In this document: in pieces, positions 7,876-64,000 of the stretch | Layout: each line of letters opens with the position of its first letter | Numbering within the stretch: the first letter of the stretch is position 1 | IMG/VR virus record: IMGVR_UViG_3300028584_001240 | Source: a virus | Lineage: Duplodnaviria; Heunggongvirae; Uroviricota; Caudoviricetes | DNA length: 64,000 nt | Strand: one strand, 5' to 3' | The notes under the pieces: model-generated | Told to the model about the DNA's origin: nothing | The model's input: only the letters and a program-made list of their open reading frames with translations | The model's database searches: none | Position numbers and translations under genes: made by a program

Positions 7876-8574
7876 TTACATATTTTCTCCAATATTATAC
7901 ATTTTCAACAACAGAAGTTCTCTTTTGGTTAATTTATTAAACTTTTTATCAAACAAAGACAAAGTGTGAGAGCTTAAATACTTTTCCAGCTCAGTTTTAA
8001 AACTCCTACTCAGGATAGAGCTGACATAGCGTTCACCTGTTAACGTTTTGGCATACAGCATCTGGTTATGCTGAAAGCAAACCGTTTCATCTTTTTTCGA
8101 AATAACAAAAGTGCTTTGATACTTGACAAAATGAGAACCAAACCGCAAAGCATTCAAATCTGAAAATTTGAACGATGAAGAATTCAAAACCTCAAAACCT
8201 TTAAAATAATAAGAAGCTCTGTCGAGATATATAAGGTTTTTCAACATCAAGCCTTCAGCACTTGGCGTGATGCCAGATAGCGTAATCTTATTAAGTGTTC
8301 GTCTGTTAATAAATCCAATTGGGATAAAAACGCCTAATTGTCCTCTGTTGTCATTGTAGTAACCAATAAAATATCTACGATCATTAAGTCCAATCAAATA
8401 AATATGACAATTATCTTCATCAAAATAGTATTTTAATTGAGGAAAAGCATATTTATTAACATGATTACCAATATCAAATCCACGAGTAAGATGCAGAAAA
8501 TCGGTGTCAGGTAATTCCGACATATCAGTTAAAAGAAGATCGTGAATCAGCGTTACATCAGGTTGTGTCATCAT
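7876..8574 (-). CDS. Tail-motif paralogue family member (motif plus 5-aa extension)
   Basis: 232 aa. Ends ..LTKRELLLLKMYNIGENM; compare ..NKRELDLIRMSYI and ..TKRERDIIEMMYI. GGAGG SD. Confidence 0.75.
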   Translation of the reverse strand: MMTQPDVTLIHDLLLTDMSELPDTDFLHLTRGFDIGNHVNKYAFPQLKYYFDEDNCHIYLIGLNDRRYFIGYYNDNRGQLGVFIPIGFINRRTLNKITLSGITPSAEGLMLKNLIYLDRASYYFKGFEVLNSSSFKFSDLNALRFGSHFVKYQSTFVISKKDETVCFQHNQMLYAKTLTGERYVSSILSRSFKTELEKYLSSHTLSLFDKKFNKLTKRELLLLKMYNIGENM

Positions 8575-8585
8575 GAACCTCCAGA

Positions 8586-8613
8586 TAAAAAAATATCTCC
8601 GAAGAGATATTTT
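8586..8613 (-). terminator. Rho-independent terminator after the S49 peptidase gene
   Basis: Plus strand reads aaaaaaaATATCTCcgaaGAGATAT; on the minus strand the hairpin is followed by a T-run. Confidence 0.8.
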
Positions 8614-8627
8614 AATTTGAAAACGTA

Positions 8628-9524
8628 TTAACGAATGCTTTCATTCGGGTGAGACATTGAAAAGAGTTTATCAATAGCCTTACCAATGGATGTTTCAAGA
8701 ACAGCGTCTAGACCGAACAAGCCAGCCAAACCACCACTTTTAGCCTTAACATCAGTATTCACCTGATACAGTTGGGCACCGTCTTTAAAAGCCTTCAAAA
8801 TAGCCGAGCGACTATCACCAATTTCATCAACAAGATGTTCCTTCAACACATCTTGTGCCATGTAAAAGTCACCTTCCATCAGCTTTTCAGGATTAATCAT
8901 AGGGCGATATTGCAATACATGGTTTTTGAACGCAGTGTGAATTTCAACCAGTTTTTGTTTGAAAATAGTTTCTTCGGCTTCACTTGGAAGTTTAGTAGGA
9001 ACCACAGAACGCTTATTGGTGCCTGCTGTGTAAACTCGAACATCAACACCGATTTTAGTCAGCACTTCTTCAAAGATAGGCACTTGCGAAACAACACCGA
9101 TAGAGCCAACAAAAGCAAACGGTTGAGCCACAATGCGATCACAGACCGAAGCCATCATATAACCACCACTGGCCGCGACTTCATCAACAAAACCAGTAAC
9201 CTTCAGACCGTGAGCACGAAGACGGTTGATTTGCTGAGCAGCATTCGCATAGGCGGTTACACTGCCACCGGGGCTTTTAATAATCATGTAGACAGCATCA
9301 CCACTTTTGGAGTTAAGGATAGTCATGTCCACATCACGTTCCAGTTTTTCAAACGCATTGCCTTTATCTTCGGCGTTAAAACGAAGAACAAAGATCTTAT
9401 TCAAATAAACGACATCTTTCGTTTTTGCTTTCAATTCACGTCGAACTTCACGACTCTCAATCTTTTTAATGAGTTCACGGTTCATATCTTTGATTTCTGT
9501 TTTAAAACGAATTTCTTTAGACAT
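8628..9524 (-). CDS. S49-family serine peptidase (SohB/SppA-like, ClpP/crotonase fold)
   Basis: IKSPGGSVTAY..VDEVAASGGYMMASVCDRIVAQPFAFVGSIGVV is the typical S49 core. AGGAG SD. Confidence 0.8.
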   Translation of the reverse strand: MSKEIRFKTEIKDMNRELIKKIESREVRRELKAKTKDVVYLNKIFVLRFNAEDKGNAFEKLERDVDMTILNSKSGDAVYMIIKSPGGSVTAYANAAQQINRLRAHGLKVTGFVDEVAASGGYMMASVCDRIVAQPFAFVGSIGVVSQVPIFEEVLTKIGVDVRVYTAGTNKRSVVPTKLPSEAEETIFKQKLVEIHTAFKNHVLQYRPMINPEKLMEGDFYMAQDVLKEHLVDEIGDSRSAILKAFKDGAQLYQVNTDVKAKSGGLAGLFGLDAVLETSIGKAIDKLFSMSHPNESIR

Positions 9525-9601
9525 TTATTGCTCCTAGGCGTTATTAATGTGGGAATTATAATACATTTTTGAAACGTTGTAAAGGAATGATTTGTATCGA
9601 A

Positions 9602-9963: not shown

Positions 9964-10569
9964 ATGAAAAAAATGTTAAACAAAGAAGCACTACTCCATA
10001 AAATAAAAGAAAAAAGTACAAAGTTTCTAGAAATAAAAAATCCGGGTGAATTAAATTGTACACCAGAAGGAAACGTTATTGATTTTAATAATATATCATA
10101 CATTAGATTACATAAAGGTCTTTTTATCATCAATAAACACACCGCCAAAAGCTTTTTTAACATTGCTTTTGAAGGTGAAGAAGACGAATATTTAGAAAAA
10201 ATTATCGAAATTTTTAATATATACGCTCATTTTGATTACTTTTTGTATACACCTAAAGACGATGGTTTTAATGTTTACAGCAAAGGTTTTGAAGCGAACT
10301 ATATAGAAAGGAAAATTAAAAAAGAACCTGAAATTGAACAAAAAGAAGGCGTATTTTATTCCAACCTTTGTAAAGAAATATCGCTTGGGCCAATGATGGA
10401 ATGTACATTAGGTATGAAAAATACAGCTTATAGTTATAAAGAGTTATATGAAAACGTCATCTATCCACAATTTCAAGAAATGCTGAAAGAAAGCATTGGA
10501 TTAGAAATTACGCACATGAGCCAGTTTGATGACCGGGCTTTTGAACTATTAAAGATGGCAAGAATTTAA
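9964..10569 (+). CDS. Tail-motif paralogue family member
   Basis: 201 aa. Ends ..DRAFELLKMARI. AAGGTGG SD. Confidence 0.75.
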   Translation: MKKMLNKEALLHKIKEKSTKFLEIKNPGELNCTPEGNVIDFNNISYIRLHKGLFIINKHTAKSFFNIAFEGEEDEYLEKIIEIFNIYAHFDYFLYTPKDDGFNVYSKGFEANYIERKIKKEPEIEQKEGVFYSNLCKEISLGPMMECTLGMKNTAYSYKELYENVIYPQFQEMLKESIGLEITHMSQFDDRAFELLKMARI

Positions 10570-10981: not shown

Positions 10982-11779
10982 TTAAATAGCAGTCATCAAT
11001 AACAAATCTATTTTATCGGCAATATTTTCTTGTGGTATATCTAAAAATTCTTGATAAAATCCATTATGAAGATTACTCACATACATCATCAATATTTCAT
11101 CTGTAAAAACATCAATATCATGATCAGTAAAAAGGGTGCTGGCTTCTATAATATCTTCCAAGGTCACTAAGCCAGCTAAACTTTCTGGAAGTTTATATAC
11201 CTTTTTATCTGATAGGCTAAAATATAATGAAAAGGGTTGAGTATGATTAAAAAAACGGACTGTTGGAAATAAAGCTATCTTTCCATCGCGGGTTATTGAA
11301 AAGTTTCTAATGAATTCATATTGTCCAACATTTCTATAAGACCGACTAACACATGATGTTATACCATATTTATGGCTATCTTTTTCCAACATGTATGTTT
11401 TTGCAAAAGTATAAAATTCATGAGGCTTTATATCACTACTCAATTTCAATAATCTTGAGAAATTGGTGTTTTTTTGAAAAGAATTAAGAGCTTCATTGAT
11501 AAAATTAAAATCTTTTCTTGATGTTTTATGAATTTGAAACATTTGATTGAACTTGTCTAGATAAGAAAGATCTTTGAGACAAATTGAATGGAAAAGAGGT
11601 TGTCCCGGTGAAATACCGAAACTGAAAAATGGTTTATTTATATTAATGGGGTTCTTATGTTTTTTAAACAAAATATGAACTTGAGTGTCCATCATAGGAT
11701 ATTGTTCATATTCAAAAAATGTTGTTTTTGTTGTTTTGGTATTAAATGCCCCAGAAACAGCATTCCGAAAATTTTCCAT
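10982..11779 (-). CDS. Tail-motif paralogue family member
   Basis: Ends ..ADKIDLLLMTAI. Start moved from TTG 11791 to ATG 11779 (GGAG 7 nt upstream). Confidence 0.8.
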   Translation of the reverse strand: MENFRNAVSGAFNTKTTKTTFFEYEQYPMMDTQVHILFKKHKNPININKPFFSFGISPGQPLFHSICLKDLSYLDKFNQMFQIHKTSRKDFNFINEALNSFQKNTNFSRLLKLSSDIKPHEFYTFAKTYMLEKDSHKYGITSCVSRSYRNVGQYEFIRNFSITRDGKIALFPTVRFFNHTQPFSLYFSLSDKKVYKLPESLAGLVTLEDIIEASTLFTDHDIDVFTDEILMMYVSNLHNGFYQEFLDIPQENIADKIDLLLMTAI

Positions 11780-11812
11780 AATAAGCTCCAAAAATAATGA
11801 ATCATAATAACA

Positions 11813-12604
11813 TTATATACTATTCATTTCAACCAAGTTCATCATTTCAGCGTAATTAGAACAACTGTCAAAAATACTCTCAACCAGTTTCCTGTCGTTA
11901 AGGAGACTGTCAATATAGTAAAAGAAAATATCGTATGTCCAATTACTATCAATTGAAGTCTTTAAATCATTAATCTCAACACCATTATCGAACAATTGTT
12001 CAAAGGTCAATAAACACCTATCAGCATTGTTTCCACTAAACGTTGAAATATTCGCTGCTTTATTCAGTTCAGGCGATAGCAAAATTGAATAGGTCTTTTG
12101 TTTTAAAGAGATATCCAACACTAAGATTGGGCGAAATTTTCCAGAATTATCTAATACCATTCGCTTGTCATAAGAATAATAGAAGTTATGTCTTTTCGGT
12201 GAGTGATAAAGGTCTATATCTGATAATGTGCATGAATTATAAAACATATGCTCAACTCGCTGGTTAACAGTGACGACTCGATGAATGGATTTTAAATCAA
12301 AATCACCCTTGGTTTTAATCATATGAACAAGGGCATCATTCAAACAAAAAGATGAAAATGCTTTTTTGAGTAGCTTGTTTTCTTCTCGGGTATACATAAT
12401 ATCTGGAATACATGATAAATAGACATCTTCATTATAAAAAACTGAACGCGAAAGAACCTTCCCATGAAAATTTAACAAGGCGACTGGCTCATTGTTCTGA
12501 TGTGTTAATGAAAGTGTTGAACTGTTTAAAAATGTGGCCGAAACAAAATGACCATCAAAGGTTTTAGAAACAGCGTCAAGAAGCGTCTGGTTAATGTTTG
12601 ACAT
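11813..12604 (-). CDS. Tail-motif paralogue family member
   Basis: 263 aa. Ends ..AEMMNLVEMNSI. Starts 2 nt after the upstream stop. Confidence 0.8.
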   Translation of the reverse strand: MSNINQTLLDAVSKTFDGHFVSATFLNSSTLSLTHQNNEPVALLNFHGKVLSRSVFYNEDVYLSCIPDIMYTREENKLLKKAFSSFCLNDALVHMIKTKGDFDLKSIHRVVTVNQRVEHMFYNSCTLSDIDLYHSPKRHNFYYSYDKRMVLDNSGKFRPILVLDISLKQKTYSILLSPELNKAANISTFSGNNADRCLLTFEQLFDNGVEINDLKTSIDSNWTYDIFFYYIDSLLNDRKLVESIFDSCSNYAEMMNLVEMNSI

Positions 12605-12606: not shown

Positions 12607-13521
12607 TTAATACGTCAACATCTCAGTTACTTTCAATCGACCAATCAACTCGGATCTTGGTAAGGTCATCATTAATTTTTTCTCCTTCAATTTTAAGTTT
12701 TCAGCTCTACCAATAATATTGACCACACACTTTATGAATTTAGCATTAAATTTCTCAAATAGCTCATCAATAGAAGCTTCCATATTATCAGAAAACATAG
12801 GAACTGCATACTTAAATTTTAAAGTTGATAAGACAGGTAGGTTAAACAAAAACCCCGGCACGAATGCTCCTTTATCATCTCTCATCAATACAATTTCTAC
12901 TTTGGCCGGAGAAAATGAAAAGCTCGTTTGTTTTCTTGAGTTCTCAGTCTTTGAAAGATAACCATAATAAGATTTGCACAAACGTTGCTCTTTTGTATCT
13001 TTGTAAGTTTTAGTCTTCACAAAAAAATCTTTCAACTGTTGTGGAATAGCACTTTTTTCAAACTTTTCAAAGAATTCAAATTCATTAGTTTCTTTAATAT
13101 AACGATCAATAACCGTTTCCATAATGTAGGATGGAAAATCACGACTAGCCATCAACTGTTCAAATAAGGTGAGAACAACTTTACTTTTATCAATCTTATC
13201 ATTAAAAATTGAATAAACAGCTTGACCATCATACACATTGTTATAAACTCGTAAGTATTTATTATCAAAGGGCTTTGGCCCAGTCTCAAGGATAATTCTG
13301 AATCCATAAGTTTGATAGGGGTCATTAATTTCAATAGGATAAGTTTTAGGCCCATACTTATCAACCAGTATAGCTCTAATTTGTTTTATAAGTGGATCAT
13401 ATTCTTTCATAGCGGCCTCTTGTTTTTCTTTATTATCTTTTGTTGCTTGATTAAAAGTAGTCACTTTGACAGCACCACTGTTGATACTGCTAAGTAAGGC
13501 TGTTAGATCAATATTTTTCAT
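12607..13521 (-). CDS. Tail-motif paralogue family member
   Basis: 304 aa. Ends ..LIGRLKVTEMLTY. Confidence 0.8.
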   Translation of the reverse strand: MKNIDLTALLSSINSGAVKVTTFNQATKDNKEKQEAAMKEYDPLIKQIRAILVDKYGPKTYPIEINDPYQTYGFRIILETGPKPFDNKYLRVYNNVYDGQAVYSIFNDKIDKSKVVLTLFEQLMASRDFPSYIMETVIDRYIKETNEFEFFEKFEKSAIPQQLKDFFVKTKTYKDTKEQRLCKSYYGYLSKTENSRKQTSFSFSPAKVEIVLMRDDKGAFVPGFLFNLPVLSTLKFKYAVPMFSDNMEASIDELFEKFNAKFIKCVVNIIGRAENLKLKEKKLMMTLPRSELIGRLKVTEMLTY

Positions 13522-13536: not shown

Positions 13537-14316
13537 TCAAATATGATGCATTGCAATGATGGAAAGGTGATCTTCAAAAGATTCCTTGTTAAGAGCTTTA
13601 AAGCCTGCTTCATCAATATCAAATAATTTTTTGAAAAGAGTTTGAACAATAGGATCGATTTCATTTTTGACTTTTGTCAAAAAGCCAGCAAGATTGTTCT
13701 GCATGGTGTGAGCACTAGACAAATGAATATCATGATCAATAGAACCAAACTTAATTTTAATATAAGGATACGAAGTAAATTGACCATCACGATATTGAAA
13801 CATCAGTTTAGTGGTCATCATGATCATTGAATTTTGAACTTTGTATAACTTAGCATTCAAAAAATGGTTTGAATAGCTTCTCATCGCATAAAAATAAGAA
13901 TGTGAGCTGTACGATCTAATGAAACCAAACTGTGATTTAAAGAGGTTCTTATCATGAAAATCTGAAGACTTTAATAAACTGTATTTGGTCGTAAAGTCTA
14001 AAAACCCCTTATTAAAATCTTTGATGAATGAATCAGCATCTTTATGCATAAGCATTTGAGATAGCTCATCAAGAAATGTTTCATTGATATCCGTTGAGAT
14101 GTGAATCGTCTTTTTATCTTGTCGATTAACATAGACATAAATAAATTTGTGCTCATTATTGACGCACACAGTAAATTTAATGACATCAGACTGACCCATA
14201 TCAACTTTATGTTTAATATTGGTTCCAATCACATCAAGATTAAATCTTTCTTTCAATAGATGACTAAAATCCTTCTTAATGACCAAAAGGTGATTGACTT
14301 CTTTTTTACTTGTCAT
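13537..14316 (-). CDS. Tail-motif paralogue family member
   Basis: 259 aa. Ends ..FEDHLSIIAMHHI. ATGA overlap with the upstream gene. Confidence 0.8.
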   Translation of the reverse strand: MTSKKEVNHLLVIKKDFSHLLKERFNLDVIGTNIKHKVDMGQSDVIKFTVCVNNEHKFIYVYVNRQDKKTIHISTDINETFLDELSQMLMHKDADSFIKDFNKGFLDFTTKYSLLKSSDFHDKNLFKSQFGFIRSYSSHSYFYAMRSYSNHFLNAKLYKVQNSMIMMTTKLMFQYRDGQFTSYPYIKIKFGSIDHDIHLSSAHTMQNNLAGFLTKVKNEIDPIVQTLFKKLFDIDEAGFKALNKESFEDHLSIIAMHHI

Positions 14317-15125
14317 ACTTTTAACATCTCCAATACTTTAAAGTCATTAATCGAACCGTTAGCTTCACTGCTAATGCCAGCAACATTAAATTGATTGACA
14401 TAGAAAGTGTATAATTCAGGTGTTAGTTTATTCATGAAATCATTAATATAATCATTAAGTCCAACTAAGGTTGGGTTTTTATTAATAGCTACATTTCTAA
14501 CAATATCAACTGATGAAATAATGCTTATTGTTGTTGTGCTCAAATCCGGGTGCTCAGTATTTAATCTATAATGGTTAGTATCTAACAAATTAACAAACTG
14601 ACCAGAGTGTTCATCAATAAAGAATCGAGTTTTTCCAAATCCACGTAAATTGATACACAGATCAATAATGGGTTTAATTTTAAAATCTTCGGTCACCACA
14701 TAACCTAATTCGGTAAACAACATATTCCATGCATTCGTGTAATAGAACATAGGAGAGAGCGTTATTCTTTTTCCTACTATTTTCGACCTATTGAAAGTAT
14801 CAGCCTCAAAGAAAATAGGGTCTTTAAAAATAATTTTTGAAATCTCATGGTTAAACAAACTATCTGAAATCATTTGACACGTCTTAAAACTATCAAATTG
14901 TGTAAAAATAGAGTTGGCTGTCTCACGGAAATCAGGATCGGTTAATTTGTAGTAAGAAAATTTATGAGTTTCACTGTCATATCCAAAGTTAAGCACTTTA
15001 CTCATTGTCACATTGTTAAAAAGATAAAATGTCTGTTTGTCTTCATGAAAATCAAGAGAATAATCATCACCCAGTATTAAGCTGAATGCTTGTTTAATGC
15101 TATCAATGGTAGTGAATTCATTCAT
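14313..15125 (-). CDS. Tail-motif paralogue family member
   Basis: 270 aa. Ends ..INDFKVLEMLKV. 1-nt overlap with the upstream gene. Confidence 0.8.
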   Translation of the reverse strand: MNEFTTIDSIKQAFSLILGDDYSLDFHEDKQTFYLFNNVTMSKVLNFGYDSETHKFSYYKLTDPDFRETANSIFTQFDSFKTCQMISDSLFNHEISKIIFKDPIFFEADTFNRSKIVGKRITLSPMFYYTNAWNMLFTELGYVVTEDFKIKPIIDLCINLRGFGKTRFFIDEHSGQFVNLLDTNHYRLNTEHPDLSTTTISIISSVDIVRNVAINKNPTLVGLNDYINDFMNKLTPELYTFYVNQFNVAGISSEANGSINDFKVLEMLKV

Positions 15126-15886
15126 TAGATATTTTCCATAGTCATTAGTGTTAGATAACTTTTAATATCATCCTCAGAAAAACAGGTTATATCATCAAGA
15201 CAAAATTTTTCTGAAATAGTTGATGAAGCGTTTTTTAAAACAACAGCGTAAATGTTGCTGCACATTTTATTAACTCTATTCAAAAAGTCTTCGTCATCCT
15301 TTAAATCAAGAGAAATGGAATGAGCCGTAATAACAAATTGGATCATCTTACTAGATTTTAAAACGGAACCATCCAAATAGTAATAAGGTTTACTTTTAAG
15401 ACGTGCGTTCATGAAAGAAAATTCATTAAAATGGCTTTCAAATGAAATTTTACCTTGCAACATTTCTTTATGAATACAATATTTACTTTTTCTTTTTTTA
15501 TCATGGTAAATTTCACCCATAGGCTGAGCATTAAATTTAATATGCACTGAACCTACCTGAAATTCACTAAGAATGGCGTTGATAGAGTCTTTAATAAGAT
15601 GTAGTTGTTCATTTTCTTGTTTAGACATGAAAAACCAATAGAAGTCTCGAATCAGTCCGGGGTTGGCACTGGATTTAATAATAATTTCTTGAGTGTTGTG
15701 TAAATAATCTGCAGAAATAGAGTGCAATTTATTTTTTTCTGTTTTGTAGTAACAGGTAATAATAGATCCTGCTTGATCCGCATTGTCTTCAATAGAAAAA
15801 GAATCTAATTCACGAACTAAAACATCAACAATAAATTTTACAATATTGTTTTTAATAAACGTAGAATTGTCTAATAAAGTTGACAT
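15125..15886 (-). CDS. Tail-motif paralogue family member
   Basis: 253 aa. Ends ..IKSYLTLMTMENI. Confidence 0.8.
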   Translation of the reverse strand: MSTLLDNSTFIKNNIVKFIVDVLVRELDSFSIEDNADQAGSIITCYYKTEKNKLHSISADYLHNTQEIIIKSSANPGLIRDFYWFFMSKQENEQLHLIKDSINAILSEFQVGSVHIKFNAQPMGEIYHDKKRKSKYCIHKEMLQGKISFESHFNEFSFMNARLKSKPYYYLDGSVLKSSKMIQFVITAHSISLDLKDDEDFLNRVNKMCSNIYAVVLKNASSTISEKFCLDDITCFSEDDIKSYLTLMTMENI

Positions 15887-15937: not shown

Positions 15938-16771
15938 TCAATAAGCAGCCATTTCTGTTACAATGACATAATCAACAAGTTGTTGCATAGAGTATTCGGT
16001 AACTTCACCTAACGATTCATGGTCTTTAAGTCTAAGATTACGTTTAATGATATCATACAATTGGGAGCGAATACAGCGTTCATATTTATAAACTAACAAT
16101 TGAACGTCATCTTCACTAATACCTTTATTAGCATCCACCATAATAGTCAACTTAATATCAGCTAACAATGGGATGTTTAAAACATAAACAGGCAACAATT
16201 CACCTGTATAAGTAGACATATTTAAACTCATGGTACACACTGAATAGGCTGCTTTACTTTTTCTATTGCTAAATCGACGGCGTTGTTCAGCTTTACGACT
16301 ACGAGCTGAATAATAGAACATTGCCAAATGTTTTTTACTCGTTGATTTTCTTCGATGATTATCATCAGAAGTTAATGAATCAATGGATAAATCTTTTGGG
16401 TGATATTCCACAGAGTCAAACTGATTCCATTTTAACCCTGCTTCAAAAAACTTCTGAATAATAGCTTGAAGGTAGTTTTCATCCACAACAGGATCTTTAA
16501 AAAGTGTTGAATAAAGGTTCTTGTAGTCATCAATAGAACCATCCATGCCTACTTTTAAAAAGTTACCATTTTCACACGGTAACACGTAGGCATTAAGGAT
16601 GTTATAAGCACTCGATTTGTAACCTGTCTTTCTATTTTTAAAAATTGAAAAACCATCGTGTCCATAATCAACAGTGTATTGTTCAAAAGGGCGGTCCAAA
16701 CCATCTGACAGCACTGTTTTAGCATGATCTAACAGTGGCTGACAGATTTCTTTTGAATTGAGTTTAGACAC
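15938..16771 (-). CDS. Tail-motif paralogue family member
   Basis: 277 aa. Ends ..LVDYVIVTEMAAY. Its ATG directly abuts the serS stop codon (16772). Confidence 0.8.
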   Translation of the reverse strand: MSKLNSKEICQPLLDHAKTVLSDGLDRPFEQYTVDYGHDGFSIFKNRKTGYKSSAYNILNAYVLPCENGNFLKVGMDGSIDDYKNLYSTLFKDPVVDENYLQAIIQKFFEAGLKWNQFDSVEYHPKDLSIDSLTSDDNHRRKSTSKKHLAMFYYSARSRKAEQRRRFSNRKSKAAYSVCTMSLNMSTYTGELLPVYVLNIPLLADIKLTIMVDANKGISEDDVQLLVYKYERCIRSQLYDIIKRNLRLKDHESLGEVTEYSMQQLVDYVIVTEMAAY

Positions 16772-18090: not shown

Positions 18091-18855
18091 TCAATAGCGT
18101 TCGATAGCCAAAACTGGATAGTAACTCATAATCTCTTCGTTACTTAATGCATTTACTTGAGTATGCGTTAAATTATATAGACGAATAATTGTACCTAAAA
18201 TTTGTGTCTGATGGAGGTCATTAAATTGAGTGGCAAAAGTATGCATCTGCATTTTAACTAAACTATCCTGTTCACTTTTCTTCTGAAACCAAAAATCCAT
18301 ACCAAATGACATGAAGTGAAATTCATCATTAAGATAAAATTGATTATTCTCAAATATAAATTTAGCTATTTTATAAACCTTAAAAGTCTCAAAAGGTGTT
18401 GTAACTTCGGCATGAATAGTTTTATCCATCATGAGCGTTTTCCATGAACCAAATTTCAATATTCTTTTTGCAAAAGGTAAAACATTTATGTTTGAGATGA
18501 TTTTTAGTTGCTCGCTGTATTCACTTGCAGCCTTCATAAATAATGAAAAAGAATCTGTGCTTTGTTCACTGCAGTGTTTAATAAATTTATTATAAAGTGG
18601 CAAATATTTTTTGTTATCAATATCTAAGGTAATGTTATTTACTACATAATCACCTTTTTTAACATTATTATTGATAGTAAATCGAAAAATAGGCTTAGCT
18701 TTACTCGTATTGACATCTAAGCAACAAATTGTCCTACCACCAGTATACTGACCCAACCCAGTGCGGGTATGGAAAATAACAGAGCCTTTCATATTTTTTT
18801 CAAAGAAAGGTCTTAACTCTGAGATCATTGCTTGACATAATTCATTATCGTTCAT
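18091..18855 (-). CDS. Tail-motif paralogue family member (sub-cluster A, 1 of 3)
   Basis: 254 aa. Ends ..IMSYYPVLAIERY (Ile replaces the Met). Shares KFIFENNQFYLNDEF with the next two genes. Confidence 0.8.
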   Translation of the reverse strand: MNDNELCQAMISELRPFFEKNMKGSVIFHTRTGLGQYTGGRTICCLDVNTSKAKPIFRFTINNNVKKGDYVVNNITLDIDNKKYLPLYNKFIKHCSEQSTDSFSLFMKAASEYSEQLKIISNINVLPFAKRILKFGSWKTLMMDKTIHAEVTTPFETFKVYKIAKFIFENNQFYLNDEFHFMSFGMDFWFQKKSEQDSLVKMQMHTFATQFNDLHQTQILGTIIRLYNLTHTQVNALSNEEIMSYYPVLAIERY

Positions 18856-23526: not shown

Positions 23527-23527
23527 A

Positions 23528-49375: not shown

Positions 49376-49410
49376 AATAAGAGAACCTTTTTTTAATTTA
49401 AGTAAGTGTA

Positions 49411-51489: not shown

Positions 51490-51555
51490 CAATATCACCT
51501 TTAAAATAGATGAATCATTATAGCATTATAATAACAAAAAATCCACACAATCTAT

Positions 51556-52137: not shown

Positions 52138-52758
52138 TCAAAACACATACATCAAAAATACTTTATATTCCTCTGGTGTCATCTTAGTAATAGGTTTTCT
52201 AAGTTCATCAGGTAAATCCGGCATATAACGAATATACGCTCTATTAAAGAATTCCTCAATCATTTCATAGTAAAGCGTATCATCCATGCCTTCATACATA
52301 ATAATTTCAACACCATCATCGTCTTCATTACAACAATCCGTCAATCTAAGCGTTCTAGCCACTTTAAGCAATCCATTTTTATCAAAATAAAAAGCTTCTT
52401 CATAATCATCAAATGGGTCGTCTTGAACATTAAGACTATTAGCAATTTGGTAAATTTTATCCATAATAGGAAAATGGATATCACCATCATTATTCTGTGT
52501 GCAATGTGCGGCTGCTAATTGAGTTAGCTTACGTTCACAGCTTTCAAGTTGCCAAAAAATAGTGAAACAATCCACCGAAATTTTACTGTATTCACAATAG
52601 TTATTATAGGTGGCAACATTCCCCATCACTTCATCAGTGGTATAGACCTTACCGTCTTTAGTAAATGTAATAGTATCTATAAATTTCCTAATATCATCAA
52701 TTGTGTATTCTTTTGAGATTTTAGGGTAGTTAGTATATTGATAAAAGTCGTGTTTCAT
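52138..52758 (-). CDS. Tail-motif paralogue family member (sub-cluster C, 1 of 3)
   Basis: 206 aa. Ends ..MTPEEYKVFLMYVF. Confidence 0.8.
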   Translation of the reverse strand: MKHDFYQYTNYPKISKEYTIDDIRKFIDTITFTKDGKVYTTDEVMGNVATYNNYCEYSKISVDCFTIFWQLESCERKLTQLAAAHCTQNNDGDIHFPIMDKIYQIANSLNVQDDPFDDYEEAFYFDKNGLLKVARTLRLTDCCNEDDDGVEIIMYEGMDDTLYYEMIEEFFNRAYIRYMPDLPDELRKPITKMTPEEYKVFLMYVF

Positions 52759-53618
52759 ATTGTCTCCATCATTAATAAAGCAAGATAACGATCACGCATC
52801 TCAGTATTAGACAAATCAATCTGGTCTTTTTTCAACCCGTAACGTTGCTTAATGATAGGAAGAAGCCTACTGATAAATTGTGCTTCCATGATTTCAGGCA
52901 ATTGGTCTTTATTAATAGGTCGAGACATCGAAATAAGGTCTTCATAAGATCGAGCCGCAAACACTTGTCTAGTAGTATACACTGTATCAGCATAAACATC
53001 CACAATAAAACTGGCCGCATAGTCTTGGTCAAACCAAGTATCTACAATAAATATGGGTTTAAGGTTGTTGTGTTGATCAATATAAAAATGAAGTTGACTT
53101 TTAATCAAAGAAACCTTTATATGGCTGTATCGTTTATTTTTTTTGTAAGCCTGATTAAATTTTAATTGGGCAATGTTACAACGGCAACATACATCATCTT
53201 GGGCATATTTAGATTTAAAAGAAATATAAGCCACAGGATTTGCAGCTACTGTTTCAAAATCATTCTGCACAATAGACAATATGCCAGATGAAGACATATT
53301 TTTAGCAACATCAATATAAGCTTTTAATACATTGTCAACAGTTTCTCTTTTGATGTTAAAGGCTTTGCAGAAAGTGTGTTCAAACTCATTACGATCTTCT
53401 TTTACAAAGTGATCGACTTTAAAGATTGCACGATTTTTATGAATAAAAACATTAAAGTGACTGTCTGTATTAGTGATTTTAAATTCAAACTGTCCAAAAG
53501 TGCCGGGAACACTTCCGCCTTCTGATGGCGTGTTGATAGCTACATGGGAACTGAGAGCTTGATGTATGTGATCAGCAAAAATTTCTTCTGGCCGTAGACT
53601 GTTTGTAATAGATTGCAT
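52755..53618 (-). CDS. Tail-motif paralogue family member
   Basis: 287 aa. Ends ..EMRDRYLALLMMETI. ATGA overlap with the downstream gene. Confidence 0.8.
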   Translation of the reverse strand: MQSITNSLRPEEIFADHIHQALSSHVAINTPSEGGSVPGTFGQFEFKITNTDSHFNVFIHKNRAIFKVDHFVKEDRNEFEHTFCKAFNIKRETVDNVLKAYIDVAKNMSSSGILSIVQNDFETVAANPVAYISFKSKYAQDDVCCRCNIAQLKFNQAYKKNKRYSHIKVSLIKSQLHFYIDQHNNLKPIFIVDTWFDQDYAASFIVDVYADTVYTTRQVFAARSYEDLISMSRPINKDQLPEIMEAQFISRLLPIIKQRYGLKKDQIDLSNTEMRDRYLALLMMETI

Positions 53619-53717: not shown

Positions 53718-54950
53718 TTATTTTACAATAACCGTCGCCGTTAATGGAACACTACATCTTTCTTCATTGTTAACAGTCTTACATGCTGATATATAATAAG
53801 GATAAGTTCCAACTGCTGCTGGTGCATTAGTTGGAAAAGCTACAACTGCAGCCGTTGCTGAGTTAGTTGCCTTTCTAACAAGTGTTGATCCTGCTGATTT
53901 AGAGAACACATCAAAGGTTAATGCTGTATTAGGAGCTACTGTATTTTGGTATCTCACATTATTAATCATAGCAATAGTAGCCGTAGGTGATGCTTCAATC
54001 GTTAATGGCTTTGTTATGGATGCACTACCACCTGCTTCATTATAAGCAGCTAACACAATATTGAATGTGCCTTCACATACACCACATACAGTTTTTTGAA
54101 CGCCTGATGTTGCATCAACAAAAGTACTTGGAAAACCAGTATACGAACTAGATGATCTTATTTGATAACTTGTTGCATTAGTTGCATTAAAATTAAGTGC
54201 ATAAGTTTGACCACCATAAATGACACTTGGAAACTCAAATGAATTGATTACTGGTATAGCCACAGACTTCACCGTTACACTTTTTGTAAAGACTTTACCT
54301 TCTTCATTGGTAGCTTCAAGTGTGTAAATGGTATCACCAATTGGGTGAACTCGACCATAAGTTACAGTTTTAAGTGTTTTAGTTAATAATGCTGAATAGC
54401 CAAGATTATTCGTTAACTTTAATGTCGTAGGTGTTGGCATATCCCATGTAAATACCAAAGAAGTGTTAGTATTAGATACTACTGGTTTATCAACGGTGAA
54501 GCTAGTAATCATATTGACATCAGCTACATCTACTGTCAGTGTACGTTGTTCACTATTACCAAATGAGTCAATACCTTCCAATATATAATTAAAATTTCCA
54601 CTATTAGATTGAGTAACATTACGGCTAGTTGTTTTATTATCTATTACTTGTCCATTAAATTTTAATGTCACTGCATTTTTAATAGACCAATCAAATTTTG
54701 AAATATCACCTTTATTAACTGTATTTGAGTCTACAGTAAATGAAATAATTTCAATTTTATCTTTATCGTCAGGAATTGGATTTTCTTCAACAGGTGGAAT
54801 TTCTTCTACTGGCGGAACTTCTACTATAGGTTTACTGACAAACACAATGTTTGATTTATCAGGAGAAATTATGACTGTGTATTGGTTTGCAGCATAAGTG
54901 CTTGAAACTAACATCATGGATAATAATGTTATTTTTAGATTTTTATTCAT
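53718..54950 (-). CDS. Exported protein with repeated Ig-like/beta-sandwich-type modules
   Basis: 410 aa. Signal peptide MNKNLKITLLSMMLVSSTYA-AN, a (P)PVEE(I/N)P repeat, then repeated modules (FTVDSNTVNKGDISKFDWSIKNAVTLKFNG.. and FTVDKPVVSNTNTSLVFTWDMPTPTTLKLTN..). Ser/Thr/Asn/Val-rich. Confidence 0.65.
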   Translation of the reverse strand: MNKNLKITLLSMMLVSSTYAANQYTVIISPDKSNIVFVSKPIVEVPPVEEIPPVEENPIPDDKDKIEIISFTVDSNTVNKGDISKFDWSIKNAVTLKFNGQVIDNKTTSRNVTQSNSGNFNYILEGIDSFGNSEQRTLTVDVADVNMITSFTVDKPVVSNTNTSLVFTWDMPTPTTLKLTNNLGYSALLTKTLKTVTYGRVHPIGDTIYTLEATNEEGKVFTKSVTVKSVAIPVINSFEFPSVIYGGQTYALNFNATNATSYQIRSSSSYTGFPSTFVDATSGVQKTVCGVCEGTFNIVLAAYNEAGGSASITKPLTIEASPTATIAMINNVRYQNTVAPNTALTFDVFSKSAGSTLVRKATNSATAAVVAFPTNAPAAVGTYPYYISACKTVNNEERCSVPLTATVIVK

Positions 54951-57003: not shown

Positions 57004-57822
57004 TTAAATTTTCATCATATCGAAAAGTGTATTGATTGATTCGACATCAAAGCTCTCAAAATCAATAGTGGTGCCAGTGAAGGCTTCAAAACGAGCTTTA
57101 TAGTTAATGTTAAACAGCTCACGTTTAATCACATACGTCAACTCCGTTAAGAAGTCATCGAATTTTTCAAATGTCTTGGATGTTTGAAAAAGAACATTTT
57201 CTTTATCTAGGTCATCAAGACTAATGATTTTTACATTGTAATAAAAAACATTATTCAGTTTTCTGAAATTAATAATCAATTCTTGATGATTTTTCTGACC
57301 CATCATTACAGAACTGAACTTGGTTGGTGTATGAAAAGTATGTTGAATGCCTGCAATGTATTCATTAAAAATAATATCATAGGTTAACGACACTGGTATA
57401 GTGCTGTTTGTACGATAATTGCCGTGGTCGTCATAGATTTCAGCGGGCACAGTCATTCGATTAAATCGTTTATCATACCAAAAGCTGGATAGCTTACTGC
57501 TCATCCGTTGTGGGGTCTTAAATCGGCTTTCAAAGCCAGTACCTGATGTGAATAGTCGATAGTCAAACATCACCGTAAACAGATTAGTACAAATTTCAAA
57601 CATCTGTTCTTGACTGAATGGGGCTTCATACTCCATGTTATTAATCAAAGCAGTATATGCCTTATTAAAGCCAACTTGTAAATCAATACCATCTCTCGTC
57701 ACTTTGGGCAAGTTATGAATTACTAAGCCATTATCCACCATTTTTAGGCAGGATTTCATAAAAGGTTTAATCTCGTGATCATCAAAACCAGATTTATAAT
57801 GTTTAGCCATCAGTTCAATCAT
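57004..57822 (-). CDS. Tail-motif paralogue family member
   Basis: 272 aa. Ends ..VESINTLFDMMKI. Confidence 0.8.
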   Translation of the reverse strand: MIELMAKHYKSGFDDHEIKPFMKSCLKMVDNGLVIHNLPKVTRDGIDLQVGFNKAYTALINNMEYEAPFSQEQMFEICTNLFTVMFDYRLFTSGTGFESRFKTPQRMSSKLSSFWYDKRFNRMTVPAEIYDDHGNYRTNSTIPVSLTYDIIFNEYIAGIQHTFHTPTKFSSVMMGQKNHQELIINFRKLNNVFYYNVKIISLDDLDKENVLFQTSKTFEKFDDFLTELTYVIKRELFNINYKARFEAFTGTTIDFESFDVESINTLFDMMKI

Positions 57823-60912: not shown

Positions 60913-61692
60913 TCAAATATAAGACATTCTGATAAGATCAAGCTCTCTTTTATTAAACATCTTATTGGTTCTTAAAAAATGAGTAAAGCTACTACCATAC
61001 AGTTTAGTCACACTTATCTCACATGTTTTAAGAATATCACTCAGTAAAATAGATTCCAGTTCACCTGATTTAAAGACAAAATAATGCACATCATAAATAT
61101 TAACATCGTGTAAAGTGGTGCCATCTTCTTGAAGTATGCTTTTAATGGGGCGTTCAACCACCATAGGCACTGTGCCATTAATACCTTTCTGCAAAGGTCT
61201 GCAGTCTTCCAAGAAATACCAAATTTGGTCGATTTTAAACGTGGTATCATCAATTTCATATGACATGCTTTTTAAATAAAGATCTTTTAACAATCTTTTA
61301 GGTTTTGCAAATTTAATCATCCGTGGCAATCCTGACGGACTAAATGCTATGTTATATGACAAAGAATATTCGCTTCCTTTTTCAAAGGATGCACTAGTTA
61401 TTACAAAATAGGATTGCTCTTTTTTATCAACAACCGCCGAGGCAAGTTCAAGGACACATCCTTTGTTATTACTATATCTATAAATAATTTCATTAACTTC
61501 AAACCCAATATCATTAAAAAATTGATTGAGTTCATCCGTGTCCAAGTCAAACTTCAAGCAATAATTTGAACTTTCAATAATATTCATAACCAGCGGTTTG
61601 TATTCTTCACAGTTTTCTTTATTGATTAGATAATGATCAACATAATGAAATTCAATTCTAGATAAGTAATCTTCTTCAGTAGCTTCTGGCAT
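60913..61692 (-). CDS. Tail-motif paralogue family member (sub-cluster D)
   Basis: 259 aa. Ends ..FNKRELDLIRMSYI. LQKGINGTVPMVVERPIK and VNIYDVHYFVF are shared with 61714.. and 63338... Confidence 0.8.
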   Translation of the reverse strand: MPEATEEDYLSRIEFHYVDHYLINKENCEEYKPLVMNIIESSNYCLKFDLDTDELNQFFNDIGFEVNEIIYRYSNNKGCVLELASAVVDKKEQSYFVITSASFEKGSEYSLSYNIAFSPSGLPRMIKFAKPKRLLKDLYLKSMSYEIDDTTFKIDQIWYFLEDCRPLQKGINGTVPMVVERPIKSILQEDGTTLHDVNIYDVHYFVFKSGELESILLSDILKTCEISVTKLYGSSFTHFLRTNKMFNKRELDLIRMSYI

Positions 61693-61713
61693 ATTTAACT
61701 CCCTAAATCGTAT

Positions 61714-62484
61714 TTAGATATACATCATCTCAATGATATCCCGCTCTCTTTTAGTAAACATTTTAGACATAGTAAGAAAATCAGTGTAATCAGTGCCATA
61801 CATTCTAGCACAACTAAAATCACACTGTGTTAATATATCAATCAGTCGAACTTCCTTAGATTTACCATGTACAGTATAGTAAACATCATAGATATTTACA
61901 TTGTAAAATGACTGAGTGTTTTCAACAATTCTTTTTAATGGATGTTCAATAATCATTGTTATATAGCCATTAATACCTTTTTGTAGCTTTCTGTTATCGT
62001 TAAAACAATAACCAATTTGGTCGATCTTAAGAGTATCACAGTCTATGATATAATGAATAGATTTAAGGGTAAGTCCTTTCAATATTTTGTTTGCTGATTT
62101 AAATGTTCGAGAAACAGCAACACCTTGTAAATTGTAAGACGTAAAATAACTGTGAACGTAACGATCATTCTTAGTAAACTCAACCCATTGCAAGACATAG
62201 CGGTCTTGTACAACCTCACCCTCAATGACAGCAGTTAAATCAATCTCACATCCTTGGTTGTCATTGAATTTCAACGTATTTTCTTCAGATAAAAATCCAG
62301 ATAATGAGAGAAATTCATTCAATTGTGCTCGTTTTAAATCAAATTTTATGATGTAAGAATAATCTTTCAACATCTCAATGAGATTGTCTTTGTATTCATG
62401 CATATTATTTTCGTTAATAATATGTGTCTCCAAATAACGATATTCAATTTTGGCTTCTAACTTGGTAGGTTTTAGTGTATTCAT
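61714..62484 (-). CDS. Tail-motif paralogue family member (sub-cluster D)
   Basis: Ends ..FTKRERDIIEMMYI. Start moved from GTG 62496 to ATG 62484, so that IEYRY aligns with IEFHY of 60913... Confidence 0.8.
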   Translation of the reverse strand: MNTLKPTKLEAKIEYRYLETHIINENNMHEYKDNLIEMLKDYSYIIKFDLKRAQLNEFLSLSGFLSEENTLKFNDNQGCEIDLTAVIEGEVVQDRYVLQWVEFTKNDRYVHSYFTSYNLQGVAVSRTFKSANKILKGLTLKSIHYIIDCDTLKIDQIGYCFNDNRKLQKGINGYITMIIEHPLKRIVENTQSFYNVNIYDVYYTVHGKSKEVRLIDILTQCDFSCARMYGTDYTDFLTMSKMFTKRERDIIEMMYI

Positions 62485-62600
62485 AACAATCGTCACTCAA
62501 TAATTCTTTGTATATTATACTATTTTACTTAATAAATCAATTGAAATGTTGATTTTCTTTTTTAATTTGTTATCCTATGCCTAAGAAAAGGATACTGACC

Positions 62601-63341
62601 ATGAATATGAAAAAAGTTAAATTAGCAGACGTATTTGAAAAGTATGGCTCTCATTATATGGTGAAATATCATGCCAGTATAGAAAATGGTATTATTTTTG
62701 AAATTGAAAAAAAATTTGGACATTCTAGAGCTAAAAATACATTTTCGACGGAATATAATATTTTTACAACTTTTAATCCACTACTTGACGAAGATTACAA
62801 AAATCTAGTTGAATATCACAGTGAAGAAATCGCTCAACTAAATAAAGGTTCTTTCTTATCAACACTCATTAATAAAGATAAAAAAGAAAAAATTAAATAC
62901 CATCAAAACAGACTAGAAGCCTTAAATGAAGTGTATGCCACCAGCGAAAAAGATAGATATATCACCAATGAGAATGATGTTGTGGTTCTCTATACTTCTG
63001 AGATTAATGTAGGTGATCATTTGCATATTGTTGATTTAAGAAATAAAGAAGAAATTAACCTTGAAACAGTTTATGTAGATGAATTGGTTCCTTTTTTTGA
63101 TGATGATAAAAACATACGATTAAAAATAAACATAAGGGCTTTTAATGTTGATAAAGTTGAATTAGACAATATCAACTTCGTTGATAACTATTGTTCTCCA
63201 ATAACTGATTATCATGTATTTAATGATCGTGAAAAAGCTTATGATTTTTCAATAGAAGAACTCATGAAAAACGAATACAATGAAAACATAAAAATGAGAT
63301 TAAAGCTTGCCAAAAAGATAGACAATTTATTTGGATATTAG
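62601..63341 (+). CDS. Hypothetical protein
   Basis: The track start is 62577. ATG 62601 (MNMKKVKLADV..) has AAGGA 7 nt upstream. No tail motif. Confidence 0.6.
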   Translation: MNMKKVKLADVFEKYGSHYMVKYHASIENGIIFEIEKKFGHSRAKNTFSTEYNIFTTFNPLLDEDYKNLVEYHSEEIAQLNKGSFLSTLINKDKKEKIKYHQNRLEALNEVYATSEKDRYITNENDVVVLYTSEINVGDHLHIVDLRNKEEINLETVYVDELVPFFDDDKNIRLKINIRAFNVDKVELDNINFVDNYCSPITDYHVFNDREKAYDFSIEELMKNEYNENIKMRLKLAKKIDNLFGY

Positions 63342-64000
63342 ATATAAGTCATTTCGATGACTTTCAGTTCATCCTCATCAAAAACATTCTCAATATTCAT
63401 GAAGTGTTCCATATTATTGCCAATCAACCTATCAAAGCTAAAACCACATGTCTGAATAATATCAGATAAGGTGAAAGATCGAATACGATCTGTATCAGAA
63501 GTAATAATATAGACAATATCAAATATGGAGACATTGTTGAATAACTGATCATCAATAGTAATACTTAATAATGGTTCTTCTTCAATGCGATGAATATTAT
63601 AGTCAAGCTTATGTGCAAATGTTTTAAGCGAGTTTGAAGTATGTAATTCAATATGATTTAAATCGAAAAGATCGCATGAATGATGAATGCTTATGATATC
63701 ATACGTTTCTTTATCGAGTTTTATGACATAGTTAAAATCTACTGAGTATGTGCCCTTAGAATACTGTTCATATTGACTCTTGTAACTGATGTCAATTCTA
63801 TACATATGCTCAAATTCAAAAGAAATTCTTTTAACATTATCAGGGTAGTTAAGTGTTGATAAATAATAACCCTGTTTATGTTTAGGGGATGTACGGATAG
63901 ATAGAGTTAAGTGATAACCTGAACTATTCTTATAAATAGATCTTTCTTGTCGTTTAAAACCTAGCTTATTAAGAAATGAATCAATCTCGCCAACTGGCAA
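63338..64000 (-). CDS. Tail-motif paralogue family member (sub-cluster D), 5' end beyond window
   Basis: Ends ..FDEDELKVIEMTYI. Aligns with 60913.. from about residue 45, so the true start lies outside the window. The 'M' at 64000 in the track is a TTG. Confidence 0.8.
   Translation of the reverse strand: MPVGEIDSFLNKLGFKRQERSIYKNSSGYHLTLSIRTSPKHKQGYYLSTLNYPDNVKRISFEFEHMYRIDISYKSQYEQYSKGTYSVDFNYVIKLDKETYDIISIHHSCDLFDLNHIELHTSNSLKTFAHKLDYNIHRIEEEPLLSITIDDQLFNNVSIFDIVYIITSDTDRIRSFTLSDIIQTCGFSFDRLIGNNMEHFMNIENVFDEDELKVIEMTYI

Follow-up and report, generated by a model that had tools for sequence, protein, structure and literature searches.

We report that 37 open reading frames (ORFs) in DNA of the IMG/VR virus record IMGVR_UViG_3300028584_001240 end in one common C-terminal tail, with a methionine residue at the fourth position from the chain end. 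The window referred to below is the whole stretch of DNA that was analysed (64,000 nucleotides). The encoded proteins appear to be members of one tandemly amplified, fast-evolving paralogous family rather than unrelated tagged proteins, about half of the members being linked to the others only by their tail, size and position. This family is previously undescribed. We tentatively propose that the tail may be a constant acidic-hydrophobic docking helix, borne by a variable body, for one putative shared partner.

The common C-terminal tail

An independent ORF call reproduced the initial annotation of this DNA, according to which 37 ORFs, about 43% of the window, share a C-terminal tail. These ORFs (188–304 amino acids, aa; 33 on the minus strand and 4 on the plus strand) lie between positions 7876 and 64000, have a summed span of 27,540 nucleotides (nt; 43.0% of the window) and close with [LVI](-7)-h-x-M(-4)-x-x-[IYV](-1)-stop, where h is a hydrophobic residue and positions are counted back from the C-terminus. 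We also obtained the same counts as the initial annotation: methionine is found exactly at position -4 in 35 of the 37 members, and the terminal residue is I, Y or V in 33 as read (34 with 7876 trimmed). Position -7 is L, V or I in 36 members. The exceptions at position -4 are 18091..18855, which has an isoleucine, and 7876..8574, in which KMYNI is followed by GENM, an extension of four residues and not of five as first stated. The members, hereafter named by their first coordinate, are the following:

7876..8574, minus strand: 232 aa, tail ..LLLLKMYNI plus the 4-aa extension GENM
9964..10569, plus strand: 201 aa, tail ..FELLKMARI
10982..11791, minus strand: 269 aa (TTG start, uncertain), tail ..IDLLLMTAI; closes the long minus-strand array
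11813..12604, minus strand: 263 aa, tail ..MNLVEMNSI
12607..13521, minus strand: 304 aa, tail ..LKVTEMLTY; near full-length homologue of 15938..16771
13537..14316, minus strand: 259 aa, tail ..LSIIAMHHI
14313..15125, minus strand: 270 aa, tail ..FKVLEMLKV
15125..15886, minus strand: 253 aa, tail ..LTLMTMENI; close homologues P0001 and P0002 from the Joint Genome Institute (JGI)
15938..16771, minus strand: 277 aa (GTG start), tail ..VIVTEMAAY
18091..18855, minus strand: 254 aa, tail ..YPVLAIERY; the sole member with Ile for Met at -4
18874..19632, minus strand: 252 aa, tail ..YPVLSMERY; exact protein on four Logan contigs
19633..20385, minus strand: 250 aa, tail ..YPVLAMEVC
20382..21119, minus strand: 245 aa, tail ..VQLLEMHKI
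21143..21952, minus strand: 269 aa, tail ..IDVIDMSKI
22006..22749, minus strand: 247 aa, tail ..INVYKMIKI
22759..23538, minus strand: 259 aa (TTG start), tail ..IQLLEMLTI; lead of alignment A1, low-confidence model
23528..24142, minus strand: 204 aa, tail ..VSLCDMIEV; heads the long minus-strand array, downstream of the promoter at 24480-24452
28800..29573, minus strand: 257 aa, tail ..ISLAEMSLI
29573..30274, minus strand: 233 aa, tail ..MTLIAMDTI
30276..31013, minus strand: 245 aa, tail ..LTVLSMEKI
34601..35494, plus strand: 297 aa, tail ..LDLTDMATI
37256..38095, minus strand: 279 aa, tail ..LKLNDMISV
39337..39999, minus strand: 220 aa, tail ..CLLFEMSTI; followed by a terminator hairpin
43886..44614, plus strand: 242 aa, tail ..FKVKEMTYI
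44611..45405, plus strand: 264 aa, tail ..IKVKEMMHI
47371..47991, minus strand: 206 aa, tail ..KKAVIMFYQ
48001..48669, minus strand: 222 aa, tail ..KQIVKMYYY
48674..49414, minus strand: 246 aa (TTG start, probably shorter), tail ..QELIKMVYY
49411..50142, minus strand: 243 aa, tail ..KELVKMTYY
50929..51498, minus strand: 189 aa (GTG start), subfamily D, tail ..REVIRMICI
51556..52122, minus strand: 188 aa, subfamily D, tail ..ISLLEMIHI; modelled with high confidence
52138..52758, minus strand: 206 aa, subfamily D, tail ..YKVFLMYVF
52755..53618, minus strand: 287 aa, tail ..LALLMMETI
57004..57822, minus strand: 272 aa, tail ..NTLFDMMKI
60913..61692, minus strand: 259 aa, tail ..LDLIRMSYI; followed by a terminator hairpin
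61714..62496, minus strand: 260 aa (GTG start), tail ..RDIIEMMYI
63338..64000, minus strand: cut by the window end, tail ..LKVIEMTYI; 288-289 aa on Logan contig L005 (7486-8355)

At least two more family members are located just past the end of the window. The tail consensus, S/T-x-E-x-h-x-x-[Y/E]-h-x-[L/V]-h-[E/D/K]-M-x-x-[I/Y/V]-COOH, corresponds to an acidic and hydrophobic helix of about 15 residues, and weaker preferences reach back to about -15 (Glu) and -22 (Asp/Glu). The methionine at -4 is almost invariant across the family, and L, V and I interchange freely at the adjacent hydrophobic positions.

The tail is specific to these proteins. The 115 non-family ORFs of at least 60 aa in the window served as controls: only four have a methionine at -4, a frequency close to the 3% methionine background, and none of the four fits the motif, so the tail is not as common on unrelated ORFs; a similar frequency there was what the initial annotation had named as fatal to its claim. 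On a matrix of the 24-residue tail, the left-out members had a median score of +8.7 bits, against a mean of -25.9 bits (standard deviation 9.2) and a best score of -6.6 bits for the non-family C-termini; no internal window of any ORF exceeded 12 bits, apart from the motif of 7876 itself. An unsupervised Gibbs search of the last 60 aa placed the motif flush with the C-terminus in 36 of the 37 members and four residues inward in 7876, with an information content of 19.2 bits, compared with 12.4–13.5 bits for the shuffled and non-family controls. In this family-wide search, the information per position exceeded the baseline only over approximately the last 15 residues. The recognisable enzymes were correctly said to lack the tail. 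The region read covers about 95 kb (the window and about 30 kb of flanking DNA) of a replicon of about 1.9 Mb, and no non-family protein in it bears the tail, the TyrRS, the SerRS, a class IIa aminoacyl-tRNA synthetase (aaRS), the NAD-ligase, the S49 peptidase, Band 7, BI-1 and a pol-beta-like nucleotidyltransferase all being without it.

Several codons are in use at the conserved positions (TTG, CTA, GTA, CTT and TTA at -7; ATT, ATA, ATC, TAT and GTA at the last position), and the members that close operons ahead of terminators (39337, 47371, 60913, 44611 and 10982) retain the tail. The tail is thus under constraint at the protein level, where selection acts, and is not a DNA or translation signal. 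An alternative genetic code or stop readthrough was also rejected as the basis of the fixed end, since the proportions of TAA, TGA and TAG match those of other genes and the next gene begins within a few bases.

Divergent bodies of a probable paralogous family

The statement that the protein bodies are too diverged to be aligned is correct for single sequences. BLAST and phmmer joined only small tandem clusters among the 37 members, and a full-length hidden Markov model of the family did not recognise the left-out member (scores of about 0 bits). A search with the profile of all 37 sequences retrieved only two near-identical JGI proteins. Gibbs searches yielded no shared N-terminal motif (residues 2–61: 13.3 bits, equal to the shuffled controls) and no common block above the shuffled controls in the region from -64 to -17. 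A collinear 40-residue module common to the whole family is therefore unsupported, and no common sequence was found across the family upstream of position -16.

Profile comparisons, in which each member was first enriched with orthologues from related contigs, did identify links between the bodies. The hhalign matches (probability; aligned columns) were as follows:

12607 with 15938: 94%; 256 columns
30276 with 52755: 91%; 170 columns
29573 with 30276: 87%; 161 columns
47371 with the 48001 group: 59%; 184 columns
47371 with the 50929 group: 76%; 53 columns (C-terminal)

The weaker best alignments were nearly all collinear and reached both C-termini. The members are arranged head-to-tail in arrays and have a narrow size range, and about half of them are tied to others only by the tail, size and array position. 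The initial annotation had suggested independent effectors sharing a tag. However, the tandem arrays, the profile links into and across the bodies (94%, 91%, 87% and 59%) and the same order of elements in two structural models, described below, indicate one paralogous family.

None of the 37 members had a Pfam match above the gathering score, the sole entry being Imm42 for one of them (E = 0.0076), and the PHROGs search gave only two single-member matches, with E of 0.0026 or weaker. Ten larger homologues from contigs L005 and L029 had no significant family match. A match to a well-characterised domain, which the initial annotation had also regarded as decisive against it, was thus not obtained with Pfam, PHROGs, PDB or BFVD.

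The structure of 51556..52122 was predicted with AlphaFold from an alignment of collected homologues of subfamily D (50929, 51556 and 52138). The model is a compact alpha/beta domain with a predicted local distance difference test (pLDDT) of 89.2 and a predicted template modelling score (pTM) of 0.83, and the tail forms an ordered terminal helix (residues 177–187, pLDDT of about 84–94). Foldseek searches with this model gave no significant hit in PDB (best E = 0.1) or BFVD (best E = 0.009, template modelling score 0.15), and the predicted fold therefore appears to be new, with no relative detected in these two databases. The model of 22759..23538 had a pLDDT of only 57. The elements follow in the same order in both models: N-terminal helices come first and are succeeded by a beta hairpin or sheet, then by two or three helices and a three-stranded sheet, after which a long helix precedes the terminal one. 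The structure predictions proposed as a test of a common fold are therefore supportive in the element order that the two models may share, but they are not decisive, since one of them has such a low pLDDT.

Conservation was measured in subfamily D with 43 sequences at no more than 80% identity. The loop at residues 160–176 had 2.53 bits per site and the tail helix 2.33, compared with 1.46–2.01 for the other helices and strands, such that the C-terminal 29 residues outrank every core strand or helix. The 17-residue linker upstream of the tail is the most conserved part of the protein (pLDDT >90), and its conserved residues are P165, E167, L168, R/K170 and P171. These Pro, Glu and Arg/Lys residues are unlike those expected in a protein core.

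Two Logan contigs from SRR34957968, of about 60 kb, match the window with complete identity. Syntenic relatives were drawn from JGI metagenomes and are listed below with their size and the identity of their pol-beta-like protein to that of the window:

L013 (Ga0370506_000001): 1.92 Mb, 96% identical
L009 (Ga0308158_10000001): 1.86 Mb, 89% identical
L010: 520 kb, 85% identical
L007/L014 (also in IMG/VR): 437 kb, 76% identical
L012: 604 kb, 76% identical

The family and its tail are present on all these relatives and also on a more distant contig with a GC content of 32% (L029). Orthologous members are only 21–42% identical between the window and the 437-kb relative, whereas the neighbouring enzymes are 69–83% identical. 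The ratio of nonsynonymous to synonymous substitution rates (dN/dS) is 0.06–0.45 for the family and 0.03–0.09 for the enzymes; the family is functional, being under purifying selection, but is evolving several times faster. Its copy number changes between relatives: in the window, 16 members are located between the S49 peptidase gene and the promoter at 24.1 kb (19 with the trio at 28.8–31.0 kb), whereas the corresponding part of the 437-kb relative has about 10.

Among the homologues found by BLAST with tail-trimmed sequences (n = 81), about 90% have the methionine exactly at -4, about 5% have isoleucine and about 5% are shifted by 1–6 extra residues. The last 12 aa of orthologues are 53% identical, compared with 41% for the body (p = 8e-5). 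When 1.84 billion representative proteins were searched with the profile of subfamily D (HMMER), only 33 clusters were retrieved, two of them spurious, and the true matches are nearly all 183–207 aa long and tail-ended; this is therefore a rare family, confined to this clade. Of the 24 full-length subfamily D homologues that were read from this search, 17 have a flush methionine at -4, four have isoleucine, two have short extensions and one has cysteine. The fixed distance to the free carboxyl end, on which the initial annotation had relied, thus holds for about 90% of homologues; however, about 5–10% carry 1–6 extra residues and about 5% have isoleucine.

Possible functions of the tail

The products would be cytoplasmic, single-domain alpha/beta proteins, each with two parts: a freely diverging body and a constant C-terminal helix of about 15 residues, on which positions -7, -4 (Met) and -1 would form a hydrophobic stripe beside the chain end. 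We tentatively favour the helix as a common handle that would dock all the members to one shared partner, or to each other, while the variable body would supply target diversity or evasion, following the logic of an adaptor or an arsenal. This preference is based on the C-terminal loop and helix being the most constrained segment while the bodies diverge fast, and the acidic-hydrophobic termini of T4 proteins that bind a clamp (see below) are a precedent for such docking. The near-invariance of the methionine amid free exchange of L, V and I would also be unusual for a purely structural core position. We infer that the helix binds a partner and does not contact its own body alone; candidate partners would include a sliding clamp or another hub, a protease or unfoldase, the interior of a capsid or shell, and a secretion ATPase, and the bodies may bind diverse targets. 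The earlier suggestion of a linear motif read by a common partner is partly supported in that the tail is the only element conserved family-wide, is acidic-hydrophobic, as known hub-binding termini are, and is kept while the bodies drift, but no non-family protein in the region read bears the tail.

Several observations weigh against a docking handle. No partner of the tail was identified, and in the region read the tail is confined to this family. In the AlphaFold model it is ordered within a compact domain (pLDDT 84–94, pTM 0.83), and the helix may simply pack on its own body. The linker is conserved in subfamily D, whereas true linear motifs have variable linkers. Extensions of one to six residues and replacement of methionine with isoleucine are tolerated in about 10% of homologues, and the tail is only moderately better conserved than the body among orthologues.

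A purely structural tail, the last core helix packing on the protein's own beta-sheet and resembling a motif because the remaining sequence has diverged, with no common partner, is a doubtful explanation but one with a sizeable chance of being correct. The initial annotation had stated that the tail does not look like a fold constraint, and this may not hold, given the ordered helix that follows a conserved linker in the confident single-domain model. The homology of the members (profile alignments into or across the bodies and the same element order in two models), the tolerated extensions and Met-to-Ile changes, and the restriction of the tail to one protein type all fit this explanation, and helical-wheel reasoning indicates that the hydrophobic face spans about 180 degrees of the helix, which suits burial. 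However, no other core element retains a family-wide signal, the N-terminal 60 aa and the region from -64 to -17 being at the level of shuffled sequences, and in subfamily D the C-terminal loop and helix are better conserved than every core element, including their Pro, Glu and Arg/Lys residues. Nor would an ordinary terminal helix be expected to have a near-invariant methionine after which, in about 90% of over 100 proteins, the chain ends exactly at +3.

A transport tag, a clamp ligand and a degron are more specific variants of a handle, each with little direct support. It is improbable that the tail is an address for transport, whether for packaging into a capsid or shell or, if the replicon is bacterial, for type IV or type I secretion. 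The motif is fixed at the chain end of a large, fast-evolving arsenal whose sequences have no signal peptides or membrane helices apparent by eye. In T4 internal proteins, encapsulin cargo peptides and the C-terminus of the HK97 protease, a short address peptide sends proteins to a capsid-like shell, and the T-even internal-protein loci are hypervariable and tied to host conflict. The family resembles these systems in being a set of variable proteins with one short shared peptide. However, the T4 internal-protein tag is N-terminal and cleaved, and the encapsulin and HK97 tags are extended and borne by unrelated cargo beside a shell gene, whereas here a helix is found on homologous proteins, and the roughly 95 kb read yielded no recognisable gene for a capsid or shell. 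Type IVB (Dot/Icm) and type I secretion signals occupy the last 15–35 residues, are uncleaved and Glu-rich, and have a hydrophobic residue near -3/-4; they too serve large arsenals of otherwise unrelated-looking proteins. The tails are enriched in Glu at about -15 to -11 and at -5 and have a hydrophobic residue at -4, a pattern that we take to resemble loosely the Dot/Icm E-block signal. These secretion signals are nevertheless degenerate and disordered, without an invariant residue, unlike the near-invariant methionine and predicted ordered helix observed here. More generally, known tags sit on non-homologous cargo and flexible segments, in contrast to this single family with a tail predicted to be ordered, and in neither the window nor its flanks did we recognise a capsid, portal, terminase or secretion-system gene. 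The adjacent S49 peptidase is SohB/SppA-like (Peptidase_S49_N match) and is not a demonstrated prohead protease.

The tail is very unlikely to be a peptide for a sliding clamp or another replication hub, tethering the members to a clamp of the gp45, PCNA or beta type. In phage T4, gp43, gp33 and gp55 dock on the gp45 clamp via acidic-hydrophobic termini (PMC2988020, PMC6212786), and the C-termini of T4 clamp ligands are likewise hydrophobic and acidic (PMC2988020). However, the T4 LDFLF motif is portable, occurring on replication and transcription proteins that are not homologous, may lie inside the chain, as in a loop of T4 ligase, and is borne by flexible segments or linkers (PMC2988020, PMC6212786), and the gp55 linker is divergent in sequence and length (PMC2988020). 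The likeness to the T4/RB69 motif consists in a short hydrophobic-acidic segment at or near the chain end, in one hub reading several proteins and in the binding of the T4 ligase version as an amphipathic helix. The end of the RB69 polymerase, which we take to be L-F-D-M-F-D-F, would even be in a register like that of the tail (hydrophobic at -7/-6, acidic at -5, Met at -4 and hydrophobic at -1). Here, in contrast, a single paralogous family carries the tail, which is predicted to be ordered and is absent from the NAD-ligase and other enzymes of the window; no clamp gene was found in the window or its flanks, and it is not obvious why a clamp should have 40 or more clients with a fold that has no known relative. 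The product of 42737..43831, considered as a possible sliding clamp, is a pol-beta-like nucleotidyltransferase shared with jumbo phages.

We give scarcely any credence to a C-terminal degron for a tail-specific or AAA+ protease, conferring a short, regulated lifetime. The non-polar end is fixed at the chain terminus and genes for membrane and protease quality control are nearby (S49 peptidase, Band 7 and BI-1), but nothing speaks specifically for a degron, known degrons are unstructured whereas the tail is predicted to be helical and ordered, and the S49 peptidase is without a known C-terminal peptide-reading domain. Finally, the proposal that the conserved ATG and final codons are a ribosome-binding or coupling signal for the next gene can be dismissed: many members abut or overlap the next start, and GAG-ATG could feed a GGAG-like Shine-Dalgarno sequence, but the synonymous codon variation and the retention of the tail in operon-ending members refute it, and the residue at -5 is in many cases not E but D, K or A.

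The docking handle that we favour has a possible parallel in the poxvirus ankyrin-repeat/PRANC families, in which the C-terminal PRANC module is F-box-like, and in other multigene families of large viruses. Like the family described here, these are large, tandem and fast-evolving, with a copy number that varies between strains, and by analogy both may join a variable target-binding body to a small helical module that is constant, forms the very C-terminus and docks on a single hub of the host. The poxvirus families, however, belong to eukaryotic viruses and have recognisable ankyrin and F-box folds, whereas here the expression signals are bacterial in type and there is no detectable relation to a known domain. 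The family thus belongs with none of the clamp-terminus, shell-targeting and PRANC systems: its tag is not portable, no cognate machine was seen and there is no domain similarity.

The tails of the 48001, 50929 and 60913 groups (e.g. FTKRERDIIEMMYI, LTKSEKQIVKMYYY and MTPEEREVIRMICI) resemble the first helix of sigma-70 region 4, for which the pattern of the region 4.1 helix is L-[ST]-x-R-E-x-x-V-L-x-[LM]-R-[FY]. Kinship was rejected: only one of ten tails matched Sigma70_r4 (positions 2–15, E = 0.2, 11.7 bits against a cut-off of 24.1), and, unlike sigma-70 region 4, the member chains stop before the helix-turn-helix and the bodies contain beta-sheets. The sigma-like appearance is probably a generic helix pattern.

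Neighbouring genes and the nature of the replicon

Judging from their sequence, the expression signals of the window are of bacterial type. Operon heads have near-consensus sigma70-type promoters (TTGACA-N17/18-TATAAT), often with an extended -10 element (upstream TG), as in 24452-24555, 9555-9583 and 15913-15941; the promoter at 24526-24555 has the sequence TTGACA-N18-TATAAT, and the long minus-strand array is preceded by a sigma70-type site at 24480-24452 that matches 11 of 12 positions. Many genes have a GGAG Shine-Dalgarno sequence 7–10 nt ahead of the start, ATGA stop-start overlaps occur, and the arrays terminate in hairpin-plus-T terminators. The enzymes and the family arrays use the same signals, and there is therefore no distinct or phage-specific promoter class. 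The following neighbouring features were identified:

8628-9524: SohB-like S49 peptidase (Peptidase_S49_N match)
38149-38349, minus strand: adjacent tRNA-Lys(UUU) and tRNA-Pro(UGG), between family members
42737..43831, plus strand: pol-beta-like nucleotidyltransferase (phrog_24943)
46149-47327, plus strand: class IIa aaRS with an HGTP anticodon-binding domain; BLAST cluster with the SerRS at 16772-18043

Genes for membrane maintenance are scattered among the arrays, at 8628-9524, 31533-32441 and 50209-50859 and on contigs L005 and L006 (SohB-like S49 peptidase, Band 7/SPFH, BI-1/YccA-like, PspC and DsbA). The clearest phage-like gene of the window is 42737..43831, the product of which is 34% identical to a protein of the Pseudomonas jumbo phage pPa_SNUABM_DT01 and has further matches in uncultured phages of 636–735 kb; its methionine at -4 (..LVKMKEA) is coincidental and is not kept in relatives. 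The product of 46149-47327 was considered as a second SerRS, but its HGTP domain marks a different class IIa aaRS; it is 95–99% identical across the closer relatives and 83% identical in the 437-kb relative (dN/dS 0.03). The SerRS is about 50% identical to ordinary bacterial serS, and it does not indicate a phage affinity, as these matches are ordinary serS genes, found in DNA that flanks prophages and in GC-rich contigs that lack the family. Rfam identified only the two tRNAs in the window, with no T-box leaders ahead of the synthetase genes.

The window contains other sets of paralogues without the tail: four small Cys-rich ORFs (..CDCDCH..) at 576-1664 on the minus strand; three ORFs of 142–175 aa at 26877-28300 on the plus strand; proteins of 664 and 714 aa without a family match, at 5898-7892 (minus) and 24585-26729 (plus); and two proteins of about 120 aa at 40038-40406 and 45467-45829 on the minus strand. 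Gene amplification is therefore common in this genome as a whole. Four tandem paralogues (427, 277, 277 and 285 aa) in the 437-kb relative (L014, 1934-6093, plus strand) have the C-terminus ..Y-x-YF-YY-x-x-CRKP[VI]; as this second family also ends in a fixed way, the Met-tail family is not the only one with a conserved terminus. Three ORFs, at 8772-9572 (plus), 55773-56525 (plus) and 56606-56908 (minus), were rejected as genes because they are shadow ORFs in or opposite the S49 peptidase and NAD-ligase genes; 55773-56525 has a dN/dS >1 with a very low apparent dS.

Related single contigs were found in four assemblies (1,859,102, 1,917,244, 1,851,360 and 1,843,594 bp; GC content of about 32%; proteins P0013, P0016 and P0017). 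In the region read, we recognised no virion or phage replication gene (capsid, portal or terminase), the sole virion-like signal being a weak Ig-like/tail-protein match in 53718..54950 (E ~2e-4), and no rRNA or ribosomal protein gene. The recognisable genes (TyrRS, SerRS, class IIa aaRS, NAD-ligase, SohB-like S49 peptidase, Band 7, BI-1, NUDIX, DsbA, PNKP and R2K) suit a cell as well as a huge phage. The features favouring a virus-like element are few, namely the sparse Pfam matches (only about one in six of the genes read), the jumbo-phage pol-beta-like gene and the presence of the 437-kb contig in IMG/VR. Two scans of GTDB with two conserved proteins identified no relative, and megablast gave no match against phages. 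The largest reported phage genome is 841 kb (bioRxiv 10.1101/2025.01.14.633092), and a 2026 review considered genomes larger than 1 megabase to be so far limited to Nucleocytoviricota (PMC13598248). The phage nature assumed in the initial annotation is putative: the replicon is either a highly unusual, orphan-rich bacterium with a small genome or a virus-like element far above the phage size record. If viral, it would exceed the largest phage genome reported so far by more than a factor of two. The carrier genome is notable in itself, with contigs of 1.84–1.92 Mb, bacterial expression signals, few recognisable genes and no GTDB relative.

The "common address tag" put forward in the initial annotation is plausible, but it needs to be recast as the tag of one paralogous family and not of unrelated effectors. 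If the tail is a docking handle, the family would constitute a natural library in which more than 40 diverged bodies are joined to the same constant peptide of 15 residues, the partner would be easy to fish by peptide pull-down or a screen of predicted complexes, and the system would illustrate the diversification of a single scaffold, under conflict, by a very large prokaryotic replicon. A bolder and rather unlikely extension is that of a hypervariable arsenal in which one machine (a hub, protease, capsid interior or translocase) reads the Met-helix, with dozens to hundreds of copies in an undescribed phage-like, orphan-rich clade with replicons of about 1.9 Mb. Were this the case, the family would be to prokaryotes what the host-range multigene families of giant viruses are to eukaryotes.

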